Shown: positions 4,211 to 49,206 of the stretch, one piece after another | Position numbering within the stretch: position 1 is the first letter of the stretch | How the letters are laid out: the number at the start of each line of letters is the position of its first letter | Notes under the pieces: generated by a model | Seen by the model: the letters and a program-made list of their open reading frames with translations, nothing else | Databases searched by the model: none | What the model was told of the DNA's origin: nothing | Made by a program: the position numbers and the translations under genes | NCBI GenBank assembly: GCA_016713135.1 | Contig: JADJPR010000015.1 | Location: 29,080 to 93,079 of the forward strand | Reading direction: 5' to 3' | DNA: 64,000 bases | DNA from: Rhodanobacteraceae bacterium | GTDB lineage: Bacteria; Pseudomonadota; Gammaproteobacteria; Xanthomonadales; SZUA-5

Positions 4211-4415
4211 GGGTTGTGGGTTCTGGGTTGTGGGTTGTGGGCGGCAACAGCCCGGTGTGCTGAAGCGCTTGCGGGAGCGGCTTCAGCCACCATTTTTCGC
4301 GCTGAGCCGGGGAAAGATCGCCGACAGAGTCGGCTCCGACGGGCCACGGCGTGCGAGCTTCGCTGCCACAACCCACAACCCACAACCCACAACCCACAAC
4401 CAGAACCCACAACCC
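4211..4415. repeat. Family-A element A1: (GGGTTGT)n arm, REP-doublet core, (ACAACCC)n arm
   Basis: Left arm 4211-4241 gggttgtgggttctgggttgtgggttgtggg. Right arm 4366-4415 ccacaacccacaaccc... is its complement. Core contains gggagcggcttcagcc and gatcgccgacagagtcggctcc. Starts 1 nt after the prpF-like stop. Confidence 0.9.
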
Positions 4416-5198: not shown

Positions 5199-5209
5199 CT
5201 TGGAATCGA

Positions 5210-5362
5210 GTTGTGGGTTGTGGGTTCTGGGTTGTGGGCAGCAAGAGCGCGGGCGGCGGGGGCTAGTCGCCGGCTGCTTCTGCGCACGAATTCACGCAGT
5301 GGCTCCGGACTGGCCGCACCCAGCTTTGGCTGCCCACAACCCAGAACCCACAACCCACAACC
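5210..5362. repeat. Family-A element A2
   Basis: 5210-5238 gttgtgggttgtgggttctgggttgtggg is the perfect 29-nt reverse complement of 5334-5362. Diverged 94-nt core. Confidence 0.9.
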
Positions 5363-5398
5363 ATCAGAATCCCCTGGCGCACAACCGAACGATCACCA

Positions 5399-7282: not shown

Positions 7283-7347
7283 CGGGTGTGCGGCGGGTTG
7301 CGTTGGGCCGGCATGCTGCAGCGTGCGGGGCGGGGAAGCAACCGGCT

Positions 7348-7525
7348 GGTTGTGGGTTGTGGGTTGTGGGCCGCGAGCTCGCACACCGCAGCCATGTGGG
7401 AGCCGACTCTGTCCGCGATCTCTTCCTGGCGGCCGCCGACAAGAGATCGCGGCTGAAGCCGCTCCCACCGGCTATCGGCACCCAGGCTCTTGCCGCCCAC
7501 AACCCACAACCCAGAACCCAGAACC
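7348..7525. repeat. Family-A element A3 (core inverted relative to A1)
   Basis: Left arm 7348-7370 ggttgtgggttgtgggttgtggg. Right arm 7496-7525 cccacaacccacaacccagaacccagaacc. The reverse complement of the core aligns with the A1 core (gtgggagcggcttcagccgcgatc ... gacagagtcggctcccac). Confidence 0.9.
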
Positions 7526-14429: not shown

Positions 14430-14707
14430 GCGGGGCAGGGGGCAAGGGGGCAGGGGACCTGTTTTGCGGCTTTGCGGATGCAATGAGGTGAGACGCGGCA
14501 CTGGGCCTTGAGTCCAGAGCGGCTACGCGGCCAGGTCACTGCGGCAAGCCATTCCCCTTGCCACGTGACCCTTGACCCGCCTTTCATCCCCGCGCAGACC
14601 CGGTTCAGACATGTCCCGCTAGCGTCCGCGGGGCCTGGAATCCAAACCGCGGCGCGGCCAGGCCAGCGCGGCAAGCCTTTTCCCCTGCCCCCTGACCCTT
14701 GCCCCGC
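14430..14707. repeat. Family-B element B1: (GGGGCA)n arm, core, C-rich arm, with duplicated right half
   Basis: Left arm 14430-14457 gcggggcagggggcaagggggcagggga. Complementary arms at 14553-14580 and 14681-14707. The 56-nt segments 14526-14581 and 14653-14708 are direct repeats. Confidence 0.88.
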
Positions 14708-29172: not shown

Positions 29173-30048
29173 TCACAGATCGACCGCGCCGCGTATCAGC
29201 GCGCAGCAGCGCCCGCCGATGTGCACCCGCCCGGCAGCGTGACGAACGTGCACTTCGCCCGCGCGACCCACGGCATGGCCTTGACTCGCCGAGTAGCGCC
29301 CACCGAACGCGGCCAGGCGATTCTGCGCGGCCAGCCAGTCGCCCACTGCGGCCTGGGCGCTCCCGGTGACTGGATCCTCGGGCACGCCGGTGGCGGGCGC
29401 GAAGGCGCGCAGTTCCAGCGGCACCGGCAGGTTCGGTTCGAAGGAGAACACCGCCAGGCCCTCGACCTTGAGCGAGCGGCTCAGCGTGGCGATCAGTTCG
29501 AGGTCCGGGACGATCGCGCGTACCTGCGCGCGACTGGCCAGTTCCAGCAGCACCCAGCGGGCACCCAGGTCCGACAGCACCGGGCGCTCGCCGACGCCCG
29601 CGCCGACGCCGCCGATGGCACGCGGCAGCGCCTCGATGATTTCCGGTGGCAGCGCACTGCGCCGTGGCAGCGGCGCCTGCACCGAGACCACCCGCTGGTT
29701 GCCCTCGCCATCGACATGCACGTCGAGCAGACCCGCGCCGCACTGCTGCACCAGTTGGCCGTGGGCGTCCGGCTTGACCAGTCCGGCGTCGAGCAATGCC
29801 CAAGCCGTGCCGACACTCGGATGGCCGGCGAACGGCAGTTCCGCCATCGGCGTGTAGATGCGCACCTGGTAACTCGCGCCTGGCGCATCCGGCCGCAGCA
29901 CGAAAGTCGTCTCCGACAAATTGGTCCAGCGCGCGAAGCGCTGCATCGCCGCCGGATCCATGCCGTTGGCATCCAGCACCACCGCGAGCGGATTGCCGTA
30001 CATCGGCACCGCGGTGAACACATCGACCTGGACAAAGGGACGCAGCAT
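29173..30048 (-). CDS. PhzF-family isomerase/epimerase-like protein
   Basis: MLRPFVQVDVFTAVPMYGNPLAVVLDANG...TNLSETTFV...FAGHPSVGTA is the PhzF family signature. About 291 aa. Confidence 0.85.
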   Translation of the reverse strand: MLRPFVQVDVFTAVPMYGNPLAVVLDANGMDPAAMQRFARWTNLSETTFVLRPDAPGASYQVRIYTPMAELPFAGHPSVGTAWALLDAGLVKPDAHGQLVQQCGAGLLDVHVDGEGNQRVVSVQAPLPRRSALPPEIIEALPRAIGGVGAGVGERPVLSDLGARWVLLELASRAQVRAIVPDLELIATLSRSLKVEGLAVFSFEPNLPVPLELRAFAPATGVPEDPVTGSAQAAVGDWLAAQNRLAAFGGRYSASQGHAVGRAGEVHVRHAAGRVHIGGRCCALIRGAVDL

Positions 30049-30110
30049 GGTAGCGGCTCCGGACACGGCCGTTCAGGCTCGCGCGTTGAGGCGTCAGGCG
30101 CAAGTGCTGG

Positions 30111-30325: not shown

Positions 30326-30452
30326 TTTTGGGCCTCATGCTGCACCGCCACACAAGCATGGTCGAAGTTTCATATCGAACGCCACTGAGAAGCCATTTCC
30401 GATCTCGCAAGCTCTTGCTGCAGTGCGCTAAGGTTGGCGTCCCTTGACGGGC

Positions 30453-33059
30453 ATGAACGAGGTCGCGGCGGTCACCATGCGCTGGATAGTCCTGAAGTTC
30501 GGCGGCACAAGTGTGTCGCGGCGGCATCGCTGGGAGAACATCGGCCGCCTGATGCGCGAGCGCCAGCAGCTTGGCGTGGGCGTGGTCACCGTGGTCTCGG
30601 CACTGTCGGGGGTCACCGACGCGCTCAAGGCACTGATCGCGCTGCACGGCGATCCGGCCGCCATGGCCGCGGCGGGCGAGGCGCTGATCGAGCGCCACCT
30701 GGCCTTCGCGCGGGATCTCGACGTCGCACCCGAAGTGCTCAACCATCGCGTCGCGGAGCTGCGCCGGCTGGTCGGCGATGTGCGTGCCGCGGCTGGCGGA
30801 CACGCCTGGCAGGCCGAAGTGCAGGCGCAGGGCGAGTTGTGGTCGAGCACTTTGGGCGCGCACTTCCTCGCGGGCCTTGGGATGGCGGTCAAATGGCTGG
30901 ATGCGCGCGATTACCTCACCAGCCGCGAGCAGGCGCTCGCCACCGAGTGGTCGCGCTACCAGAGCGCGATCTGCGAGCCGCGCCCGAGCCCGGCGGTGCG
31001 GCAGGACCTGGCCGCGCGCGGACAGATGTTCATCACCCAGGGCTTCATCGCGCGCCAGCCGGGCGGCGACACCGTGCTGCTCGGGCGCGGCGGCTCGGAC
31101 ACGTCCGCCAGCTACTTCGGTGCGCTGCTCGGCGCCGAGCGGGTGGAAATCTGGACCGATGTGCCGGGCATGTTCAGCGCCAACCCCAAGCAAGTACCGG
31201 ATGCACGCCTGTTGCGCCGGCTGGACTACGACGAGGCACAGGAAATCGCCACCACCGGCGCCAAGGTGCTGCATCCGCGCGCCATCGGCCCGGTGCGCGA
31301 GGTCAAGGTGCCACTGTGGATCAAGGACACCGAACGGCCCGAGTTGCCGGGCACCGAGATCGTCGCCGAGGCCGCCGGTGGCGCGCCCAGCATCAAGGCG
31401 ATCTCGCTGCGCAACGGCATCACCCTGGTGTCGATGGAATCGATCGGCATGTGGCAGCAGGTGGGCTTCCTCGCCGATGTGTTCGCCTGCTTCAAACAGC
31501 ACGGCCTGTCGGTGGACCTGATCGGCTCGGCTGAAACCAATGTCACGGTGTCGCTGGACCCGAGTGACAACCTGCTCGACGCCGGCACCCTGGACGCGCT
31601 GTGCCGCGACCTGGCGCGCGTCTGCCGCGTGCGCGTGATCGCGCCCTGCGCGGCGGTGACCCTGGTTGGCCGCGGCATGCGCGGGATGATGCACCGGCTG
31701 TCGGAGATCCTCGCCGAGATCGGCGCGCGCCGGGTGCACCTGGTGTCGCAGTCGTCCAACAACCTGAATCTTACCTTCGTCATCGATGCCGCCGACGCCG
31801 ACGGCGTGGTCCCCGCGCTGCACGCGCACCTGGTGCGCGAGGGCCTGACCGGCGCCGACGGTGACCCGGTGTTCGGCCCCTCCTGGCGTGCGCTGGAGCG
31901 CGTGCCGGAGCCGCCGCCGGTGCGCTGGTGGGAAAGCGCGCGGGCGGCGCTTCTGGCGCGCGCGCAGGCGCTGCCGACGCCGTGTTATGTCTACGCCGGC
32001 AGCATGCTGCGCGCCCGCGCAGCCGACCTGCTCGGACTCAAGTCGGTCGATCGCCGCTACTACGCGCTCAAGGCCAATCCACATCGGGAGATCCTGCGCA
32101 CACTCGCTGGACTCGGCTTCGGCATGGAGTGCGTGTCGCTCGGCGAACTGGACCATGTGCAGGCCACGCTGCCGGACCTGCCGCCGGAGCGCGTGCTGTT
32201 CACGCCGAATTTCGCGCCACGCGCCGAATACGCCGCAGCGCTGGCGCGCGGCGTGCGCGTGACGGTCGACAACCTGTCGCTGCTGGAGCGCTGGCCGGAG
32301 CTGTTTGTGGGGCGCGAGATCCTGCTGCGCTTCGACCTCGGCCGCGGTCTCGGCCACCACGACAAGGTCAAGACCGGCGGCGAGAAGAGCAAGTTCGGCA
32401 TTGCCGTGGCCGAGGTTGCCGCCGCCGCGCGCCTGGCGGCCGCCTGCGATGCGCAGGTGATCGGGCTGCATGCGCACCTCGGCAGCGGGATCTTCGACAT
32501 CGCGCACTGGAAGACGGTCTACGCCGACCTCGCCGGACTCGCGGATCGCTTCCCGGCAGTGCAGGCGCTCGACATCGGTGGCGGCCTGGGCGTGCCGCAC
32601 GAGCCGGGCGAACAGCCGCTCGCGCTGGCGGAACTGGATGCCGCGCTGGCTGGGGTCAAGTCGCTTTACCCGCGCTTCGAACTGTGGATCGAGCCCGGCC
32701 GCTACCTCGTCGCCGAGGCCGGCGTGGTGCTGACCCGCGTGACTCAGACCAAGCGCAAGAGTGGGGTGCAGTTCGTCGGTGTCGACGCCGGCATGCACAC
32801 CCTGCTGCGCCCGGCGCTGTACGACGCCTGGCACGAGATCGTCGACCTGAGCCGTCACGGCCAGCCAACTGGTGGCCGCTGGCAGGTCGTCGGCCCGATC
32901 TGCGAATCCGGCGACATCCTCGGCCGCGACCGCGCTCTGCCGGAGCCGCAGGAGGGCGATTTGATGCTGATCGCCAACGCCGGCGCCTACGGTGCGTCGA
33001 TGGCATCGCGCTATAACCTGCGCGAGGCGGTGCGCGAGGAGTGGGTGGATGAGTTGTGA
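30453..33059 (+). CDS. Bifunctional aspartate kinase / diaminopimelate decarboxylase (LysC-LysA fusion)
   Basis: N-terminus MRWIVLKFGGTSV (aspartokinase). The C-terminal half has YYALKANPH...GMECVSLGE and GAYGASMASRYN, typical of PLP Orn/DAP/Arg decarboxylases. This fusion is characteristic of Xanthomonas-type genomes. Start is ATG 30453 or 30477. Confidence 0.9.
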   Translation: MNEVAAVTMRWIVLKFGGTSVSRRHRWENIGRLMRERQQLGVGVVTVVSALSGVTDALKALIALHGDPAAMAAAGEALIERHLAFARDLDVAPEVLNHRVAELRRLVGDVRAAAGGHAWQAEVQAQGELWSSTLGAHFLAGLGMAVKWLDARDYLTSREQALATEWSRYQSAICEPRPSPAVRQDLAARGQMFITQGFIARQPGGDTVLLGRGGSDTSASYFGALLGAERVEIWTDVPGMFSANPKQVPDARLLRRLDYDEAQEIATTGAKVLHPRAIGPVREVKVPLWIKDTERPELPGTEIVAEAAGGAPSIKAISLRNGITLVSMESIGMWQQVGFLADVFACFKQHGLSVDLIGSAETNVTVSLDPSDNLLDAGTLDALCRDLARVCRVRVIAPCAAVTLVGRGMRGMMHRLSEILAEIGARRVHLVSQSSNNLNLTFVIDAADADGVVPALHAHLVREGLTGADGDPVFGPSWRALERVPEPPPVRWWESARAALLARAQALPTPCYVYAGSMLRARAADLLGLKSVDRRYYALKANPHREILRTLAGLGFGMECVSLGELDHVQATLPDLPPERVLFTPNFAPRAEYAAALARGVRVTVDNLSLLERWPELFVGREILLRFDLGRGLGHHDKVKTGGEKSKFGIAVAEVAAAARLAAACDAQVIGLHAHLGSGIFDIAHWKTVYADLAGLADRFPAVQALDIGGGLGVPHEPGEQPLALAELDAALAGVKSLYPRFELWIEPGRYLVAEAGVVLTRVTQTKRKSGVQFVGVDAGMHTLLRPALYDAWHEIVDLSRHGQPTGGRWQVVGPICESGDILGRDRALPEPQEGDLMLIANAGAYGASMASRYNLREAVREEWVDEL

Positions 33060-33069
33060 GAAGCCAGGA

Positions 33070-33206
33070 GCGGGGCAGGGGGCAGGGGGCAAGGGGAATT
33101 GCCAAGGCTTCGGACATGCCCCGGATTCATGGCCGAGCGCCTCCATTCGCCCCAGTGGGGTTCGAGCCTTGAGGCAGCGGCCCCTGCCCCTTGCCCCTTG
33201 CCCCGC
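33070..33206. repeat. Family-B element B2
   Basis: Left arm gcggggcagggggcagggggcaagggga (33070-33097). Right arm cccctgccccttgccccttgccccgc (33181-33206). Fills the lysC/lysA to PP-loop intergenic gap. Confidence 0.9.
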
Positions 33207-33224
33207 CTTTCCGAGCCTCACGAC

Positions 33225-34565
33225 ATGACCCAACCCCGCCCCACCGCCACGACCTTCCGCCTGACCGACTGCCGTTACGCCGACGGAGAGGTGTTGCTCG
33301 GCTATGCCTTCGACGATGGCGCCACGATGTTCGAGCGCATCCGCTTCCCTGGCGCGCCGGCGGCGGTGCCGGCGGGGCGCGAGGCGGCGTTCGCCCGGGC
33401 GCTGGCACTGCTGCACGGGATCGCGGGCGTCAGCTACTACAAGGCACTGGTCCCGGAGCGTATCGAAGTGGCCGGTGAGGCTTTCGATCCGGCGCTGGCG
33501 ACGCTGCTGGACGAGGTCTGGCTGCATGGCCTTGGCGAGTTCGCGCATCACAACGGCCTGGACTTGCGCGGGCGGATCCGCTTCCCGCATGGCGCGGAAC
33601 CAGCACCCGCGGCAGCTGCGCTTGGCCTGCCGCGGCGCGCGCTGGTGCCGATCGGTGGCGGCAAGGATTCGCTGGTCAGCATCGAGACGCTCAAGCGCGC
33701 GGGCGATCCGGTCGCGGTGGTGTGGATCGGCCGCAGCGAACTGATCCGCGCCTGCGCCCAGGCCACCGGGCAGCCGCTGCTGAACATCGAGCGCGAGATC
33801 GCGCCGGAACTGTTCGAACTCAATCGCCGTGGCGCCTGGAACGGCCACATCCCGGTCACCGCGATCAACTCGGCGATCCTGACCCTGGCGGCGCTGCTCT
33901 ACGGCTACGACGAGATCGTGTTTTCCAACGAGGCTTCGGCGAGCGTCGGCAACCTCGTCAGCAACGAACTCGACATCAACCACCAGTGGAGCAAGGGCCT
34001 GCGCTTCGAGACCCTGTTCGCCGGCTACCTGCGCGACGCGGTAGCTGCCGACCTGCGCTACTACTCGCTGCTGCGGCCGTTCTCCGAACTGGCGGTGACC
34101 GAGCGTTTCGCCCGGTTGACCCGCTATCACGGGCTGTTTTCCAGCTGCAACCGCAATTTCCGCATCCTCGGCGACAAGCCCTCCTCGCGCTGGTGCGGCG
34201 AGTGTCCGAAATGCCGTTTCGTGTTCCTCGCGCTGGCGCCGTTCATGAGCAAGCCCGCGCTGCTGACGATCTTCGGCCGCAACCTGCTGGACGAGCCGGA
34301 GCAAGTGGCGGGTTTCGATGCGCTGCTCGAATTCGGCGCGGTCAAACCCTTCGAATGCGTGGGCGAGGGCCGCGAATCCCGCGCCGCGCTGCTCGCGCTG
34401 AGCCAGCGCGCCGACTGGCGCGAGGACGCTCTGGTGCGGCGCTTCGTCGACGAGGTGCTGCCGGCGATCGATCCCTCCGGGCTCGAGCTGCCGCCACTGC
34501 TGCGGCCTTCCGGAGAGCACCACGTTCCGGCGAGGCTGTGGGCGGCGCTGGGCCTGGAATCCTGA
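33225..34565 (+). CDS. PP-loop (GGGKDS) ATP-pyrophosphatase-superfamily protein of unknown specificity; possible MurL-like enzyme
   Basis: ATG 33225 (MTQPRPTATTF). ALVPIGGGKDSLVS resembles the SGGKDS PP-loop. CGECPKC motif near the C-terminus. 446 aa. Confidence 0.6.
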   Translation: MTQPRPTATTFRLTDCRYADGEVLLGYAFDDGATMFERIRFPGAPAAVPAGREAAFARALALLHGIAGVSYYKALVPERIEVAGEAFDPALATLLDEVWLHGLGEFAHHNGLDLRGRIRFPHGAEPAPAAAALGLPRRALVPIGGGKDSLVSIETLKRAGDPVAVVWIGRSELIRACAQATGQPLLNIEREIAPELFELNRRGAWNGHIPVTAINSAILTLAALLYGYDEIVFSNEASASVGNLVSNELDINHQWSKGLRFETLFAGYLRDAVAADLRYYSLLRPFSELAVTERFARLTRYHGLFSSCNRNFRILGDKPSSRWCGECPKCRFVFLALAPFMSKPALLTIFGRNLLDEPEQVAGFDALLEFGAVKPFECVGEGRESRAALLALSQRADWREDALVRRFVDEVLPAIDPSGLELPPLLRPSGEHHVPARLWAALGLES

Positions 34566-34568
34566 GCC

Positions 34569-34796
34569 GGTTGTCGGTAGGCGGTTGTGTCGGCAGCAGC
34601 CGATGTGCCCTGAGCCCGTGGGAGCGGCTTCAGCCGCGATCTTTTCCCGGCGGCTGCTGGAGAAGATCGCCGACAGAGTCGGCTCCCACAGGTGTGTCGG
34701 TGTTCGAGCCTTGCTGCCCAGAACCCAGAACCCACAACCCACAACCCACAACCCACAACCCACAACCCACAACCCACAACCCACAACCCACAACCC
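34569..34796. repeat. Family-A element A4 with asymmetric arm expansion
   Basis: Degenerate left arm ggttgtcggtaggcggttgtgtcgg. REP doublet 34618-34689 (gtgggagcggcttcagccgcgatc ... gatcgccgacagagtcggctcccac). Right arm 34717-34796 is about 11 heptamers of CCCA(C/G)AA. Confidence 0.9.
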
Positions 34797-34876
34797 GGCT
34801 AGATCCTGCCCGCCATCCAATCCACCACCTCGGGCTGCCGGGCATACTTGGCCACTGAACCTCCCGGAACCCGCGC

Positions 34877-36235
34877 GTGACCGCAGCCCTCGACCAACCT
34901 CGCCGCCTTGGCCTGTGGAGCGCCTGTGCCATCGTCGTGGCGAACATGGTGGGTACGGGGGTGTTCTCGACCCTGAGCTACCAGGTGCATGCGCTGCCGG
35001 ATGAGCGCGCGATCCTGCTGTTGTGGGTGCTCGGCGGGATTTCGGCGCTGGCAGGCGCCTTGTGCTGTGCGGAGCTGGGTGCGGCGCGACCACGCTCTGG
35101 AGGCGAGTACGCGCTGCTGACGCAGCTGTTCCATCCGGCGGCGGGCTTCATCGCCGGCTGGATCTCGGTGGTCGCCGGATTTGCCGGGCCAATCGCCGCC
35201 GCCGCGCTCGCCTTTGCGGCCTATTTCGGCAAGTTATGGCCGGCTGCGGCGGCGGTGCCGATGTGGATCGCGATTGGCCTGGTGACCTTGATCAGCGCGC
35301 TGCACTTGCTGCGGGTGGAGATTGGCGCGCGCTTCCAGGTGATCACCACGCTGCTCAAGATCGTGGTGATGCTGGCGATCGTCGCCGCCGCGCTGCTGTT
35401 CGCGCCAGCACGCGAGCCGGCCACCGCCGATCTCGGTTCGGTGATCGCCAACCCGGCGTTTGCGGTCTCGCTGGTCTATGTGACCTACGCCTACCTCGGC
35501 TGGAACGCTGCGCTGTACGTGGCCGGCGAGGTGCGCGATCCGCAGCGCAGCCTGCCGCTGGCGCTGATCGCCAGCACCGCGCTGGTGACGCTGCTGTATG
35601 TCGCGGTCAACTGGGCCTTCCTCCGCCTGGTGCCTTTCGACGAGCTGGTGCGGGTCAATCCGGGTGCGATGACCGTGGACAACGAACTGGCGGTGGGTTT
35701 CCTCGCCGGGCGCGCACTGTTCGGCGAGCAGGGCGGGATGATCGTCGGCGGCGCGATTGCGTTCACCCTGATCTCCACGGTCAGCGCGATGGTGCTGGCC
35801 GGCCCGCGCGTGCTCGCGGCGATGGCCGAGGACTGGCGCCCATTCGCGCTGTTCGGCCGGCGCCACTCTGGCGGCTCGCCGCGCGCGGCGATCGCTTTCC
35901 AGTGGCTGCTGATCGTGCTCCTGCTGGCCACCGCGAGCTTCGAATTCGTGATCAACTTCATCGGCGTGTCGCTGACCCTGTTCAACATGGCAGTGATCGT
36001 CGGCTTCCTGCGCGACCGCGTGCGCCGACCGGACCTGCCGCGCCCCTTTCGCGCGCCCTTCGGCTGGACCTCAGGCCTGCTTTTCCTTGCCATCAACGGG
36101 TGGATGATCGTGTTCCTGTGCTTCAACGAACCCAAGGCTGTGCTGCTTTCCCTGGCATCCATCGCGGTCGCATTCGCGGCCTATTGGCCGTTGCGCCGGC
36201 ATGCGCCAACGCAAGCGGCCAAGGTGCCCGCATGA
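34877..36235 (+). CDS. APC-superfamily amino-acid permease
   Basis: 452 aa, about 12 TM helices. N-terminal VANMVGTGVF and AEL.......GGEY motifs. GTG start. Confidence 0.85.
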   Translation: MTAALDQPRRLGLWSACAIVVANMVGTGVFSTLSYQVHALPDERAILLLWVLGGISALAGALCCAELGAARPRSGGEYALLTQLFHPAAGFIAGWISVVAGFAGPIAAAALAFAAYFGKLWPAAAAVPMWIAIGLVTLISALHLLRVEIGARFQVITTLLKIVVMLAIVAAALLFAPAREPATADLGSVIANPAFAVSLVYVTYAYLGWNAALYVAGEVRDPQRSLPLALIASTALVTLLYVAVNWAFLRLVPFDELVRVNPGAMTVDNELAVGFLAGRALFGEQGGMIVGGAIAFTLISTVSAMVLAGPRVLAAMAEDWRPFALFGRRHSGGSPRAAIAFQWLLIVLLLATASFEFVINFIGVSLTLFNMAVIVGFLRDRVRRPDLPRPFRAPFGWTSGLLFLAINGWMIVFLCFNEPKAVLLSLASIAVAFAAYWPLRRHAPTQAAKVPA

Positions 36236-37398
36236 GGGCTGTCCGCGGTTTGTTTGGAGTCCTGCTCGCGCTGGCATCCGGCGCGACCCTGGCCATGGAT
36301 GTCTGCCCCGGCGCCGACCCGCGCGCCAGCTGGAACCAGGGCACGCTGAACGACACCGCGCGCATCCTCGCCGGGCTGCGTGCGCCACTCGAGTCCGATC
36401 TGGCGGAGGTGGTCGATCCGCGCGCGCTGGAGCGCCATCGCGACACCCTGGGCGCCAGTTGGGCGCAACTGCGCCAGCGTCAGCTCGAACCTGCTGCACG
36501 CTTCGCGCGCGAGGCGCTGGGACCCGTCGGCAGTGCGCCGCGACGCGTCTACTACCCCTTCAGCGGACCGGATGCACTGTACCTGCTGACCATGTTTCCG
36601 GACGCGCGCGCCTCCGTGCTGACTGGCCTGGAACCGGTTGGCAGCGTGCCCGATTTCAAGGGCCTGGATGCGCGGCAGATCGAGGCCGGGCTCGCGGAGG
36701 TGCGCAAGTCGCTGTACGCGATCCTCTCCTTCAGCTTCTTCCGCACCAACGATCTGACTGTCGACCTGCGCAAGAGCCGCTTCTCGGGGGTCACGCCGAT
36801 CCTGTTCGTGTTTCTCGCGGAAGCGGGCTACGCGGTATTCGACGTGCGCTATGTGCTGCTGCCGCCGGGCGGCGCGCTGTGCCAGGCGGATGCGGCGCAG
36901 ATCGGCAAGCCACCGGCGGGCCATCTGCCCGGGGTGGAGATCGAGTATTTCCACCCGGACGACGCCGATTTCCGCAAGCTGGTGTACTTCGCCGCGGACC
37001 TCGGCGACGGTGGCCTGAAGCGCACGCCGCAGTACATCGATTTCGTGACCGCCTTCGATGCCGACGCCACCTACCTCAAGAGCGCGTCCTACCTGATGTA
37101 CCGGCCATGGTTCTCGCAGGTGCGCAAGCTGATCCTCGATCACAGCGAGATCGTGCTGCAGGACGACTCGGGCATCCCGCACGCCTGGTTCCGCCCGGCG
37201 CTGTGGCAGGCCACGCTGTACGGCCGCTACGGCTCGCCGATCGCATTATTCAGCAACTGGACCCAGCCGGGGCTGCGCCAGGCGTACGCGGAGGGCGATC
37301 CGCAGCCGCTCGATTTCGGCATCGGCTACCGTCACCGGCGCAACGACAGCAACCTGCAGCTGTACCGCAAACGGCCCGAGGAACATGCGTCGCCGTGA
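36232..37398 (+). CDS. Secreted protein of unknown function
   Basis: ATGA overlap with the permease stop. Signal peptide MRAVRGLFGVLLALASGATLA. Conserved-looking blocks YYPFSGPD and YLKSASYLMY. No family recognised. Confidence 0.7.
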   Translation: MRAVRGLFGVLLALASGATLAMDVCPGADPRASWNQGTLNDTARILAGLRAPLESDLAEVVDPRALERHRDTLGASWAQLRQRQLEPAARFAREALGPVGSAPRRVYYPFSGPDALYLLTMFPDARASVLTGLEPVGSVPDFKGLDARQIEAGLAEVRKSLYAILSFSFFRTNDLTVDLRKSRFSGVTPILFVFLAEAGYAVFDVRYVLLPPGGALCQADAAQIGKPPAGHLPGVEIEYFHPDDADFRKLVYFAADLGDGGLKRTPQYIDFVTAFDADATYLKSASYLMYRPWFSQVRKLILDHSEIVLQDDSGIPHAWFRPALWQATLYGRYGSPIALFSNWTQPGLRQAYAEGDPQPLDFGIGYRHRRNDSNLQLYRKRPEEHASP

Positions 37399-38575
37399 GT
37401 GCCTTGCGGCGCTGCTCGCCGGCGCCGGATGGCCCTTCGGCCTGCGCGCCACGGAGTCGCTGGGCGCGTTGATCGGCGCCGCCGGCCCGGTTGCGCGACG
37501 GGTGCTAGCGGCGCGCGCGGCATACCAGCCACAAGTGCTGCTGACGCACTGCGTGCGCGACGGAAGCGCTTGGCGCGCGCAGGAGAGCGAGGCCTTCGGA
37601 CTGCGGTCGCGGCAATGGTTCGCGGCCGCCAGTTGGGTCAAGCTGCCGCTGGCCGGAGTGCTGCTGGAGGAACTGGATCGCCGCGGACTGGACATTGCGG
37701 CCGGCGCGCTGCGCCTGGAGGTCGATGGTGCGACTGCCTGCGCGCCGCTGCCCGCAGCGCAGGCAGGCGGATGGCGCCTCGATGCGCTGATGCAATCCAT
37801 GCTGGTGGTCAGCGACAACCTCGCCTACAACGCGCTGTACGAGCTGCTCGGCAGCGACGCGATCCACGCGCGACTGCGCGAACTTGGTTTTCCCGGGATC
37901 CGGATGGCGACGCGCCTGGGCTGCCCGCAGCCGCGCAGTCCGGGCAAGCTCGCCGCGCGCCTGCGTGACGCACGGGGCGCCGTGGTGTGGGAATCGCCGG
38001 CGCAGCTGCAGGAAACCTTCCAGCGCTTTCCGCATGGCAAGGCCCGCGCGGGGCGCGCCTGGGCTGAGGGCGGCCGCGTGATTCCTGGCGCGCACGATTT
38101 CAGCGACTCGAACTTCATCCCGCTGGCCGATGTGCACCACATGACGCTGGAGTTCGGCGGTCAGGTCGGCCTGTTGTTCGAACTCACCGCACCCACGCGT
38201 CGCTGGCTGGCCGACACACTTTCGCTGGTGCCGCGGCAAGCGGGCGGTCTGGGCGTGGAGCAGCGTGCGCTGCCCGACGATCATTCGAAGTGGCTGCTGC
38301 CGCTGGATGCCGCCGGCCATTTTCCAGCGCATCTGCGCATCCACAGCAAGAACGCGCAGTCCTACGGCTGGATTGGCGACAGCGCCTTCATCGTCGACGA
38401 ACAGGCTGGGCGCGCCTGTGCCCTCACGGCGCTGGTGTTCGTCGACCGCGATGGCGTGCTCAACGACGGCGCTTATGACTACGCTGGGACCGGCCGCCCG
38501 TTCCTGCGCGAAGTCGGCAGCGCGCTGTGGAAGGACGTCCGGGTGACGTTGAACGCTCCGACCGGGGCCGGTTAA
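37385..38575 (+). CDS. Class A beta-lactamase-like serine hydrolase, exported
   Basis: 14-nt overlap with the preceding gene. MRRRECLAALLAG is a possible Tat/Sec signal. S-x-x-K (ASWVK) and S-D-N (VVSDNLAYN) motifs. Confidence 0.7.
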   Translation: MRRRECLAALLAGAGWPFGLRATESLGALIGAAGPVARRVLAARAAYQPQVLLTHCVRDGSAWRAQESEAFGLRSRQWFAAASWVKLPLAGVLLEELDRRGLDIAAGALRLEVDGATACAPLPAAQAGGWRLDALMQSMLVVSDNLAYNALYELLGSDAIHARLRELGFPGIRMATRLGCPQPRSPGKLAARLRDARGAVVWESPAQLQETFQRFPHGKARAGRAWAEGGRVIPGAHDFSDSNFIPLADVHHMTLEFGGQVGLLFELTAPTRRWLADTLSLVPRQAGGLGVEQRALPDDHSKWLLPLDAAGHFPAHLRIHSKNAQSYGWIGDSAFIVDEQAGRACALTALVFVDRDGVLNDGAYDYAGTGRPFLREVGSALWKDVRVTLNAPTGAG

Positions 38576-38916: not shown

Positions 38917-39067
38917 GTGGGAGCGGCTTCAGCCGCGATCTTTTCCCTGCGGCGGCTGGAAAGGTCGCCGACAGAGTCGGCTCCCACAGGCTGGCGGTGT
39001 GCAGGCTCTGCTGCCCACAACCCACAACCCACAACCCACAACCCGCCCACAAACCCACAACCCGCCC
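38917..39067. repeat. Family-A element A5 (REP doublet plus right arm only)
   Basis: gtgggagcggcttcagccgcgatc...gtcgccgacagagtcggctcccac, then cccacaacccacaacccacaacccacaacccgcccacaaacccacaaccc (39014-39067). The left heptamer arm is missing next to the MITE-like element. Confidence 0.88.
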
Positions 39068-49112: not shown

Positions 49113-49206
49113 GCGGGGCAGGGGGCAGGGGGCAGGAGACCGGGCTTCGCCGCATGGTTGAACCGTGCTGCGAGTTTCGTCCCTTGCCCCCTGACCCCTT
49201 CCCCGC
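49113..49206. repeat. Family-B element B3 (short core)
   Basis: Left arm gcggggcagggggcagggggcagga (49113-49137). Right arm tcccttgccccctgaccccttccccgc (49180-49206). Confidence 0.88.

Follow-up and report, generated by a model that had tools for sequence, protein, structure and literature searches.

A probable MurL epimerase gene with a QueC-like PP-loop domain, behind lysC/lysA and apart from murD2, in a Rhodanobacteraceae bacterium

The 64-kb stretch of Rhodanobacteraceae DNA analyzed here, called the window in what follows, carries an open reading frame (ORF) at 33225-34565 that very probably encodes MurL, the UDP-N-acetyl-alpha-D-muramoyl-L-alanyl-L-glutamate epimerase, an assignment made from sequence. 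The gene follows a lysC/lysA fusion gene and is itself followed by an amino-acid permease gene (Table 1). A preliminary description of this DNA had reported the 446-aa ORF, which is real and intact from ATG to TGA. It had also stated that only a repeat, named B2, separates the gene from lysC/lysA, and this is accurate: the 165-bp spacer between the lysC/lysA stop at 33059 and murL is a palindrome with arms composed of GGGGCAG heptamer arrays, and its RNA fold (33060-33224) has an energy of -99.4 kcal/mol with a z score of -4.7.

The coding character of the ORF is supported by a third-position G+C fraction (GC3) of 0.85, typical of coding regions in this window of approximately 68% G+C, and by the 7840 homologues of the protein retrieved in a search of 5.8 billion proteins. 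An alternative TTG start at 33099 opens a longer ORF that contains 33225-34565. We discarded this start because its 42 added codons fall inside the palindrome between the genes and match nothing in the homologues. The likely translation start is the ATG at 33225, since the palindrome fills 33060-33224, the MurL profile covers residues 4-442 of the protein, and the homologues are 443-450 aa long (among the 120 matches listed of the 7840).

Table 1. Features at the murL locus; positions are those of the window, residues those of the 446-aa protein.
Feature	Positions	Strand	Basis or detail
PhzF-family gene, transcribed away from lysC/lysA	29173..30066	-	Pfam PhzC-PhzF, E 8.2e-57
lysC/lysA fusion (aspartate kinase + diaminopimelate decarboxylase)	30444..33059	+	NF006515, 1229.8 bits; Pfam AA_kinase, ACT, Orn/DAP decarboxylase
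Intergenic palindrome ("repeat B2")	33060..33224	.	Arms GGGGCAG x3.6 at 33072-33096, complement at 33180-33204
murL ORF (probable)	33225..34565	+	ATG to TGA, 446 aa, real and intact (ORF listing)
N-terminal domain, approximately residues 1-130 (MurL_N in homologues)	33225..33614	+	Invariant E37, S70, Y71, K73, G102, N110
C-terminal catalytic domain, residues 137-446 (MurL_epimerase_C in homologues)	33633..34562	+	QueC-like PP-loop fold (from model and profile comparisons)
PP-loop motif GGGKDS, G144-S149, predicted ATP pyrophosphate-binding loop	33654..33671	+	Translation
Four-cysteine cluster, C308 (SCN) and C324, C327, C330 (WCGECPKC)	34146..34214	+	Translations; predicted structural zinc site
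Cys378 (KPFECVGE), outside the four-cysteine cluster	34356..34358	+	Translation; invariant in 71 homologues
Spacer 3' of murL, where gene order breaks	34566..34876	.	Terminator-like hairpin 34624-34637 and T-run; (CCCACAA)x11.4 array 34717-34796
Amino-acid permease gene, at the usual position of murD2	34877..36235	+	Pfam AA_permease_2, E 1.1e-52

MurL is an already known family, with a characterized enzyme, curated NCBIfam and Pfam models and a usual conserved locus. The window protein scores 710.8 bits (E 5e-214) against NF041275 (MurL_Xanthmoales), the NCBIfam equivalog model for MurL of the Xanthomonadales, which has a cutoff of 700, and the match is full length, with residues 4-442 aligned to profile positions 3-443 of 447. 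All 120 homologues listed, at up to 96% identity, possess both PF26299 (MurL_N) and PF26298 (MurL_epimerase_C), and many of them bear the epimerase name UDP-N-acetyl-alpha-D-muramoyl-L-alanyl-L-glutamate epimerase from NCBI, UniRef or JGI. The same two domains are present on the homologues at 84-85% identity encoded by the contigs that we examined. An exact-sequence look-up found no record of the window protein. The closest relative among the matches listed, at 96% identity, is metagenomic, and the named relatives are metagenome-assembled genomes of the Rhodanobacteraceae or Lysobacterales. A second search, made among 1.84 billion cluster representatives, gave 2609 members of the family at E<=0.001. 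The two-domain architecture is therefore that seen in homologues; the window protein itself matched no family at E<=0.1 in our local copy of Pfam, because the MurL models are newer than that copy. A phmmer search with the single window sequence against PDB sequences found nothing at E<=10.

Orthology to the characterized Xanthomonas enzyme was judged through the X. vasicola orthologue, whose gene overlaps murD2 and whose product is 60% identical to the window protein over 433 residues, and through the position of the gene behind lysC/lysA. Conservation was assessed in an alignment of 71 diverse members of the family, 34-84% identical to the window protein, which retains every one of the 28 residues that never vary among the 71 aligned sequences (itself included). 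The preliminary description had guessed at a MurL-type enzyme, and the guess is borne out by the above-cutoff profile score of 710.8 bits, by the MurL_N and MurL_epimerase_C domains of the homologues and by the identity to the X. vasicola protein. Many MurL orthologues (e.g. P0005, P0029 and P0056-P0058) are labeled "endonuclease domain-containing protein" in older NCBI records. This name is apparently an annotation carry-over from relatives such as P0110, to which a DUF559 (PF04480) domain is fused. The murL gene of the window would be named correctly by a standard annotation pipeline.

In X. oryzae, XOO_1319 (MurL) and XOO_1320 (MurD2) jointly complement a D-Glu auxotroph, and MurL turns the L-Glu of the MurD2 product into the D-Glu form (PMC8788868, PMC5808125). 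XOO_1319, which belongs to the same family and is of the same length as the window protein, needs ATP and Mg, uses one ATP with formation of AMP, and works in the L-to-D direction only; its discoverers have hypothesized that the alpha-carboxylate of Glu is adenylated (PMC8788868, PMC5808125). Both sources are reviews from the discoverers' laboratory (Dairi lab), and the ATP/Mg-dependent one-way epimerization has been published for XOO_1319 only. MurL acts in the MurD2/MurL route, by which the Xanthomonadales obtain the D-Glu of their peptidoglycan. In physiological role, the provision of peptidoglycan D-Glu, it resembles the glutamate racemase MurI; however, MurI has an unrelated fold (that of the Asp/Glu racemases), requires neither cofactor nor ATP, employs a two-cysteine mechanism, and acts reversibly on free glutamate. 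Within the library searched, our literature search yielded only these two reviews; no paper there connects MurL with the PP-loop or with the fold of QueC, and none describes a MurL structure, although the link to PP-loop enzymes may already have been recognized in databases, since both domains are defined in Pfam.

The AlphaFold2 model of the window protein (pLDDT, the predicted local distance difference test, 96.9; predicted template modeling score, pTM, 0.95) consists of two domains. Nearly all of its top Foldseek matches in the PDB are PP-loop ATP pyrophosphatases: QueC (2pg3, 3bl5), TtuA, QatC (9y01_B), Cap9 (9nto_B), MnmA, ArgG (argininosuccinate synthase), ThiI and YcfA. The best structural match is QueC, the 7-cyano-7-deazaguanine synthase, with an E value of 8.6e-5 for 2pg3 and target-normalized TM scores of 0.59 for 2pg3 and 0.62 for 3bl5; the corresponding score for Cap9 is 0.67, and all three matches have a probability of 1.00. 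Profile comparisons point the same way. The profile of the 71 MurL sequences matches TtuA PH0300 at E 5e-4 across the segment lvpiGGGKDSlvsiellkkag, which sets GGGKDS on SGGKDS, and hhalign aligns residues 137-341 of the MurL alignment with residues 2-214 of QueC at E 6.8e-5, the target being two QueC sequences from PDB alignments. The preliminary description had called the motif PP-loop-like, and the profile matches to TtuA and QueC and the fold comparison uphold this. We consider that the C-terminal two thirds of MurL is supported, by the model and by these alignments, as a QueC-like adenylating domain. Such a fold fits both the published ATP-to-AMP stoichiometry and the adenylation hypothesis of the discoverers.

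The motif GGGKDS follows a strand at E139-142 and is a variant of SGGxDS in which Gly replaces the first Ser. In the 71-member alignment G144, G145, G146 and S149 never vary, and conservation of K147 and D148 is at least 90%. In the hhalign comparison GGGKDS falls opposite SGGQDS of QueC and NGHIP opposite NTFVP, and C308, C324, C327 and C330 fall opposite QueC Cys188, 197, 200 and 203, which we take to be the zinc-binding cysteines of the QueC structures. By this analogy, the four-cysteine cluster of MurL most probably forms a QueC-type structural zinc site; two of its members, C308 and C327, are invariant, and the other two, C324 and C330, show at least 90% conservation. The CGECPKC motif within the cluster had been noticed in the preliminary description and is present (residues 324-330, at 34194-34214); it lies approximately three quarters into the sequence rather than at the C terminus, where it had been placed. 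The other invariant residues of the catalytic domain are N206, G207, H208, E236, S238, N252, H253, Q254, K257, S307 and W323, and the invariant Cys378 may be a candidate catalytic residue. The Arg of the family-consensus sequence SNERSA is Ala in the window protein (SNEASA).

MurL and QueC align in the PP-loop, in a following N-x-x-[IV]-P segment and in a C-x(n)-C-x2-C-x2-C quartet, and both consume ATP and yield AMP. QueC adenylates a carboxylate. MurL differs from QueC in two additional parts, an N-terminal domain (approximately 130 aa) and a helical extension at the C terminus (approximately 100 aa), in the Gly at the first PP-loop position, and in its UDP-sugar dipeptide substrate; the two are only 13-17% identical, and the outcome is stereoinversion followed by hydrolysis in MurL but amide or nitrile formation in QueC. 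The PP-loop sulfurtransferases TtuA and MnmA and the adenine-nucleotide alpha-hydrolase enzymes ArgG and ThiI have the ATP-binding core in common with MurL but act on other substrates (tRNA, citrulline), and the published activity of MurL needs only ATP and Mg, with no sign of an iron-sulfur cluster or a sulfur carrier. The N-terminal domain had been described as approximately 150 aa without recognizable motifs. It is closer to 130 aa, and the absence of motifs holds for the local Pfam scan, although homologues do possess PF26299. When it was modeled alone (pLDDT 93.1), the Foldseek search of the PDB gave no significant relative, with a best E value of 0.035 and TM scores of at most 0.34; a weak resemblance to an RNase-H-like topology at that level was judged not meaningful.

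To place the gene in context, we compared 80 related loci from GTDB species genomes, 75 of which include DNA upstream of murL. The lysC/lysA fusion lies immediately upstream in all 75, at a median gap of 97 nt. A murD-like gene, murD2, lies downstream of murL in 79 of the 80, within 600 nt in 78 of these, and the median spacing is a 29-nt overlap. The Xanthomonas orthologues, at approximately 60% identity to the window protein, have the same lysC/lysA upstream and murD2 downstream, whereas in the window clade an amino-acid permease gene follows murL and murD2 is elsewhere. The locus with the closest MurL among the 80 (L001, 86% identity) has no murD2 downstream and also has the permease gene after murL. 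The complete order of the window, i.e. lysC/lysA, murL, amino-acid permease, unannotated gene and beta-lactamase-like gene, recurs in every other contig examined whose MurL is 84-85% identical to that of the window (L081-L085 and L093). The unannotated ORF (36232-37398, plus strand) has no family match, encodes a protein of approximately 380-440 aa, and overlaps the class-A beta-lactamase-like gene (Beta-lactamase2; 37385-38575, plus strand); the pair is kept in every clade contig examined that reaches that far downstream. On the other side of the locus, the PhzF-family gene adjoins lysC/lysA in many related loci.

The whereabouts of murD2 in this clade are suggested by its relatives. In L002 and L092 (MurL 81-82%), the order is murL, S9-type peptidase, murD2 and cytochrome b561, and the single inserted gene (S9/DLH-type peptidase; L002 11397-13667, L092 7204-9210) looks like an intermediate step toward the full separation of murL and murD2 in the window clade. 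L002 is a close relative of that clade with a murL-linked murD2, and its MurD2 used as a query retrieved a tight group of proteins, 76-78% identical, encoded at loci that do not adjoin murL. In these contigs (L086-L091), a cytochrome b561-like gene (PF01292) always comes directly after the relocated murD2-like gene, with stop and start codons overlapping or adjacent. The genes around the pair vary between the contigs, which suggests that the two were relocated together, perhaps repeatedly. A clade murL contig (L083) and a murD2 contig (L087) occur together in JGI sample 3300048587. These arrangements are explained most economically if, in the window lineage, murD2 and the cytochrome b561 gene left the neighborhood of murL as a pair. 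The missing murD2 would then be a rearrangement of the lineage and not evidence against the MurL assignment, and we regard murD2 adjacency as typical of the MurL family but not defining. NCBIfam has no separate MurD2 model and MurD2-like proteins all match the generic murD model, so that MurD2 and MurD are not separable by family scan.

Fusion proteins within the family echo the gene order. P0126 (889 aa) and P0170 (832 aa) join MurL to a MurD-like ligase, and approximately nine more family representatives are of similar length. P0138 (918 aa) is an aspartokinase (AA_kinase and ACT) fused to MurL, an arrangement that mirrors the lysC/lysA-murL gene order. The preliminary description had linked the gene to a diaminopimelate (DAP)/lysine neighborhood; the link stands as gene order at all 75 loci and as this one aspartokinase-MurL fusion protein, and only to that extent.

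The spacers on the two sides of murL are of a different character from the genes. The spacer between lysC/lysA and murL in L001, L081 and L082 holds G-rich arrays similar to those of the window, and the spacer downstream of murL differs widely among clade members. The clade spacers on both sides contain varied short tandem arrays (GGGGCAG/GGGGCAC heptamers and GACGCAAAG 9-mers) and REP-like (repetitive extragenic palindrome-like) elements, located at L001 5662-5925, L081 9851-10000, L082 9662-10000 and 11342-11800, and L084 1580-1866. Because these repeats change from relative to relative, the spacers are hypervariable and rich in repeats, with conserved flanking genes. Within the window, such intergenic elements form a family with arms of inverted tandem heptamer arrays flanking a core of approximately 100-250 bp, at 4211-4415, 5208-5363, 7347-7525, 14432-14698, 33072-33204, 34717-34796, 39013-39067 and 49115-49197; the arrays at 34717-34796 and 39013-39067 apparently have no clean partner arm. 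Two kinds of heptamer are present in the window: GGGGCAG/CTGCCCC with 9 matches (0.35 expected) and GGGTTGT/ACAACCC with 30 matches (0 expected).

Approximately 60 nt past the murL stop, a REP-like palindrome GTGGGAGCGGCTTCAGCCGCGA with a T-run (window 34600-34660) is the sole terminator-like site on the plus strand in the region, and terminator-like sites are no more numerous than in shuffled sequence. A promoter scan found none. Scans of the whole window with Rfam at the gathering threshold and for tRNA genes returned nothing; lysC/lysA is accordingly not preceded by a lysine riboswitch. It is probable that murL is cotranscribed or coregulated with the upstream lysC/lysA gene.

Several observations weigh against the assignment to MurL or against its QueC-like reading. 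The NF041275 score exceeds its cutoff by 11 bits only, the first Ser of the canonical SGGxDS is Gly, the target-normalized TM scores of 0.59-0.67 are modest, and the hhalign probability against QueC is a moderate 63%. Nothing resembling a Mur ligase occurs in the 64-kb window by tblastn at E<=1e-3, and the murD2 partner gene, which is not adjacent, is deduced from relatives and placed outside the window. The preliminary description had seen correctly that no murD2 adjoins the gene, but it had treated this as a weakness of the MurL assignment, an objection that falls away with the lineage rearrangement deduced from loci of which all but one in 80 have murD2 downstream. The barely exceeded cutoff, the missing murD2 (absent also from the murL contigs of the clade) and the Ala in place of the consensus Arg of SNERSA would also be expected if the protein were a diverged QueC-like PP-loop enzyme with another substrate or role, its murD2 link lost and an amino-acid permease gene beside it. 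We consider this very unlikely, because the match to the MurL profile is full length with all family-invariant residues kept, the lysC/lysA link is precisely the one that bona fide MurL loci have, the clade retains, at other loci, murD2-like genes with 76-78% identity to the murL-linked murD2 of L002, and sister lineages show the intermediate with a single peptidase gene between murL and murD2.

Even less likely is that murL is redundant or a relic, its lineage having acquired the canonical route, in which MurI provides free D-Glu and MurD is D-Glu-specific. The sole point in its favor is the unlinking of murL and murD2; against it, murL is intact with every invariant residue, many metagenomic relatives have conserved the protein at 84-96% identity, and the murD-like genes of the clade most resemble the murL-linked MurD2 of sister lineages. 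Nor was any murI or Mur ligase found among the 45 window ORFs scanned (NCBIfam, Pfam or PADLOC), a scan outside which the four longest and several short ORFs lay. The Foldseek matches to QatC (9y01_B) and Cap9 (9nto_B) raise the thought that the protein serves in an anti-phage system, as a QueC-like component comparable to QatC or Cap9, for which the chance is remote in the extreme: PADLOC gave no match for MurL or for three unannotated neighbors, the genes on either side have housekeeping roles and include no QatA, QatB, QatD or CD-NTase, the core locus is conserved across the Xanthomonadales, and the likeness to QatC and Cap9 is that of the common QueC-like fold only. We rejected a defense-system reading on the gene context and the empty PADLOC scan. 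The protein is thus best regarded as MurL.

We present a hypothetical scheme for the action of this MurL. MurD2, encoded elsewhere in the genome, would ligate L-Glu onto UDP-MurNAc-L-Ala, as published for Xanthomonas. The PP-loop domain of MurL (GGGKDS, 144-149) would bind ATP-Mg, and the alpha-carboxylate of the terminal L-Glu would be adenylated with departure of pyrophosphate, a step that we infer from the fold and from the published findings that one ATP is needed and AMP is formed. The acyl-adenylate might then acidify the C-alpha proton, allowing acid/base residues to remove it and to reprotonate the opposite face; candidates for these residues are C378, H208, H253, K257 and, in the N-terminal domain, K73/Y71. 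Alternatively, inversion could proceed through an oxazolone intermediate. Hydrolysis of the adenylate would free the D-Glu product and AMP, as the discoverers proposed, and the consumption of ATP and adenylation of the L-substrate alone would, again according to their proposal, render the reaction one-way.

It is possible, though we hold it tentatively, that these strands belong together: MurL would be a QueC-type PP-loop adenylating module, with GGGKDS, a four-cysteine metal site and the invariant C378, joined to an N-terminal domain without known relatives in structure, and stereoinversion would take place on the acyl-adenylate or possibly on a Cys378 thioester. The lysC/lysA-murL order and the aspartokinase-MurL fusion would then reflect a real coupling of DAP supply to D-Glu installation, one that persisted in the window clade after murD2 had left. 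If true, such a stereoinversion would put the PP-loop scaffold to use in epimerization for the first time.

The QueC-like PP-loop domain and its four-cysteine site would provide a structural rationale for the unexplained ATP-to-AMP chemistry of MurL, and the alignment gives a short list of invariant residues for mutation. Since the adjacency of murL and murD2 is not universal, annotation rules based on context would miss the window clade. The MurD2/MurL route is a proposed target for narrow-spectrum antibiotics. The link of murL to lysC/lysA, together with the aspartokinase-MurL fusion, hints at a coordinated supply of the precursors of the peptidoglycan stem peptide.

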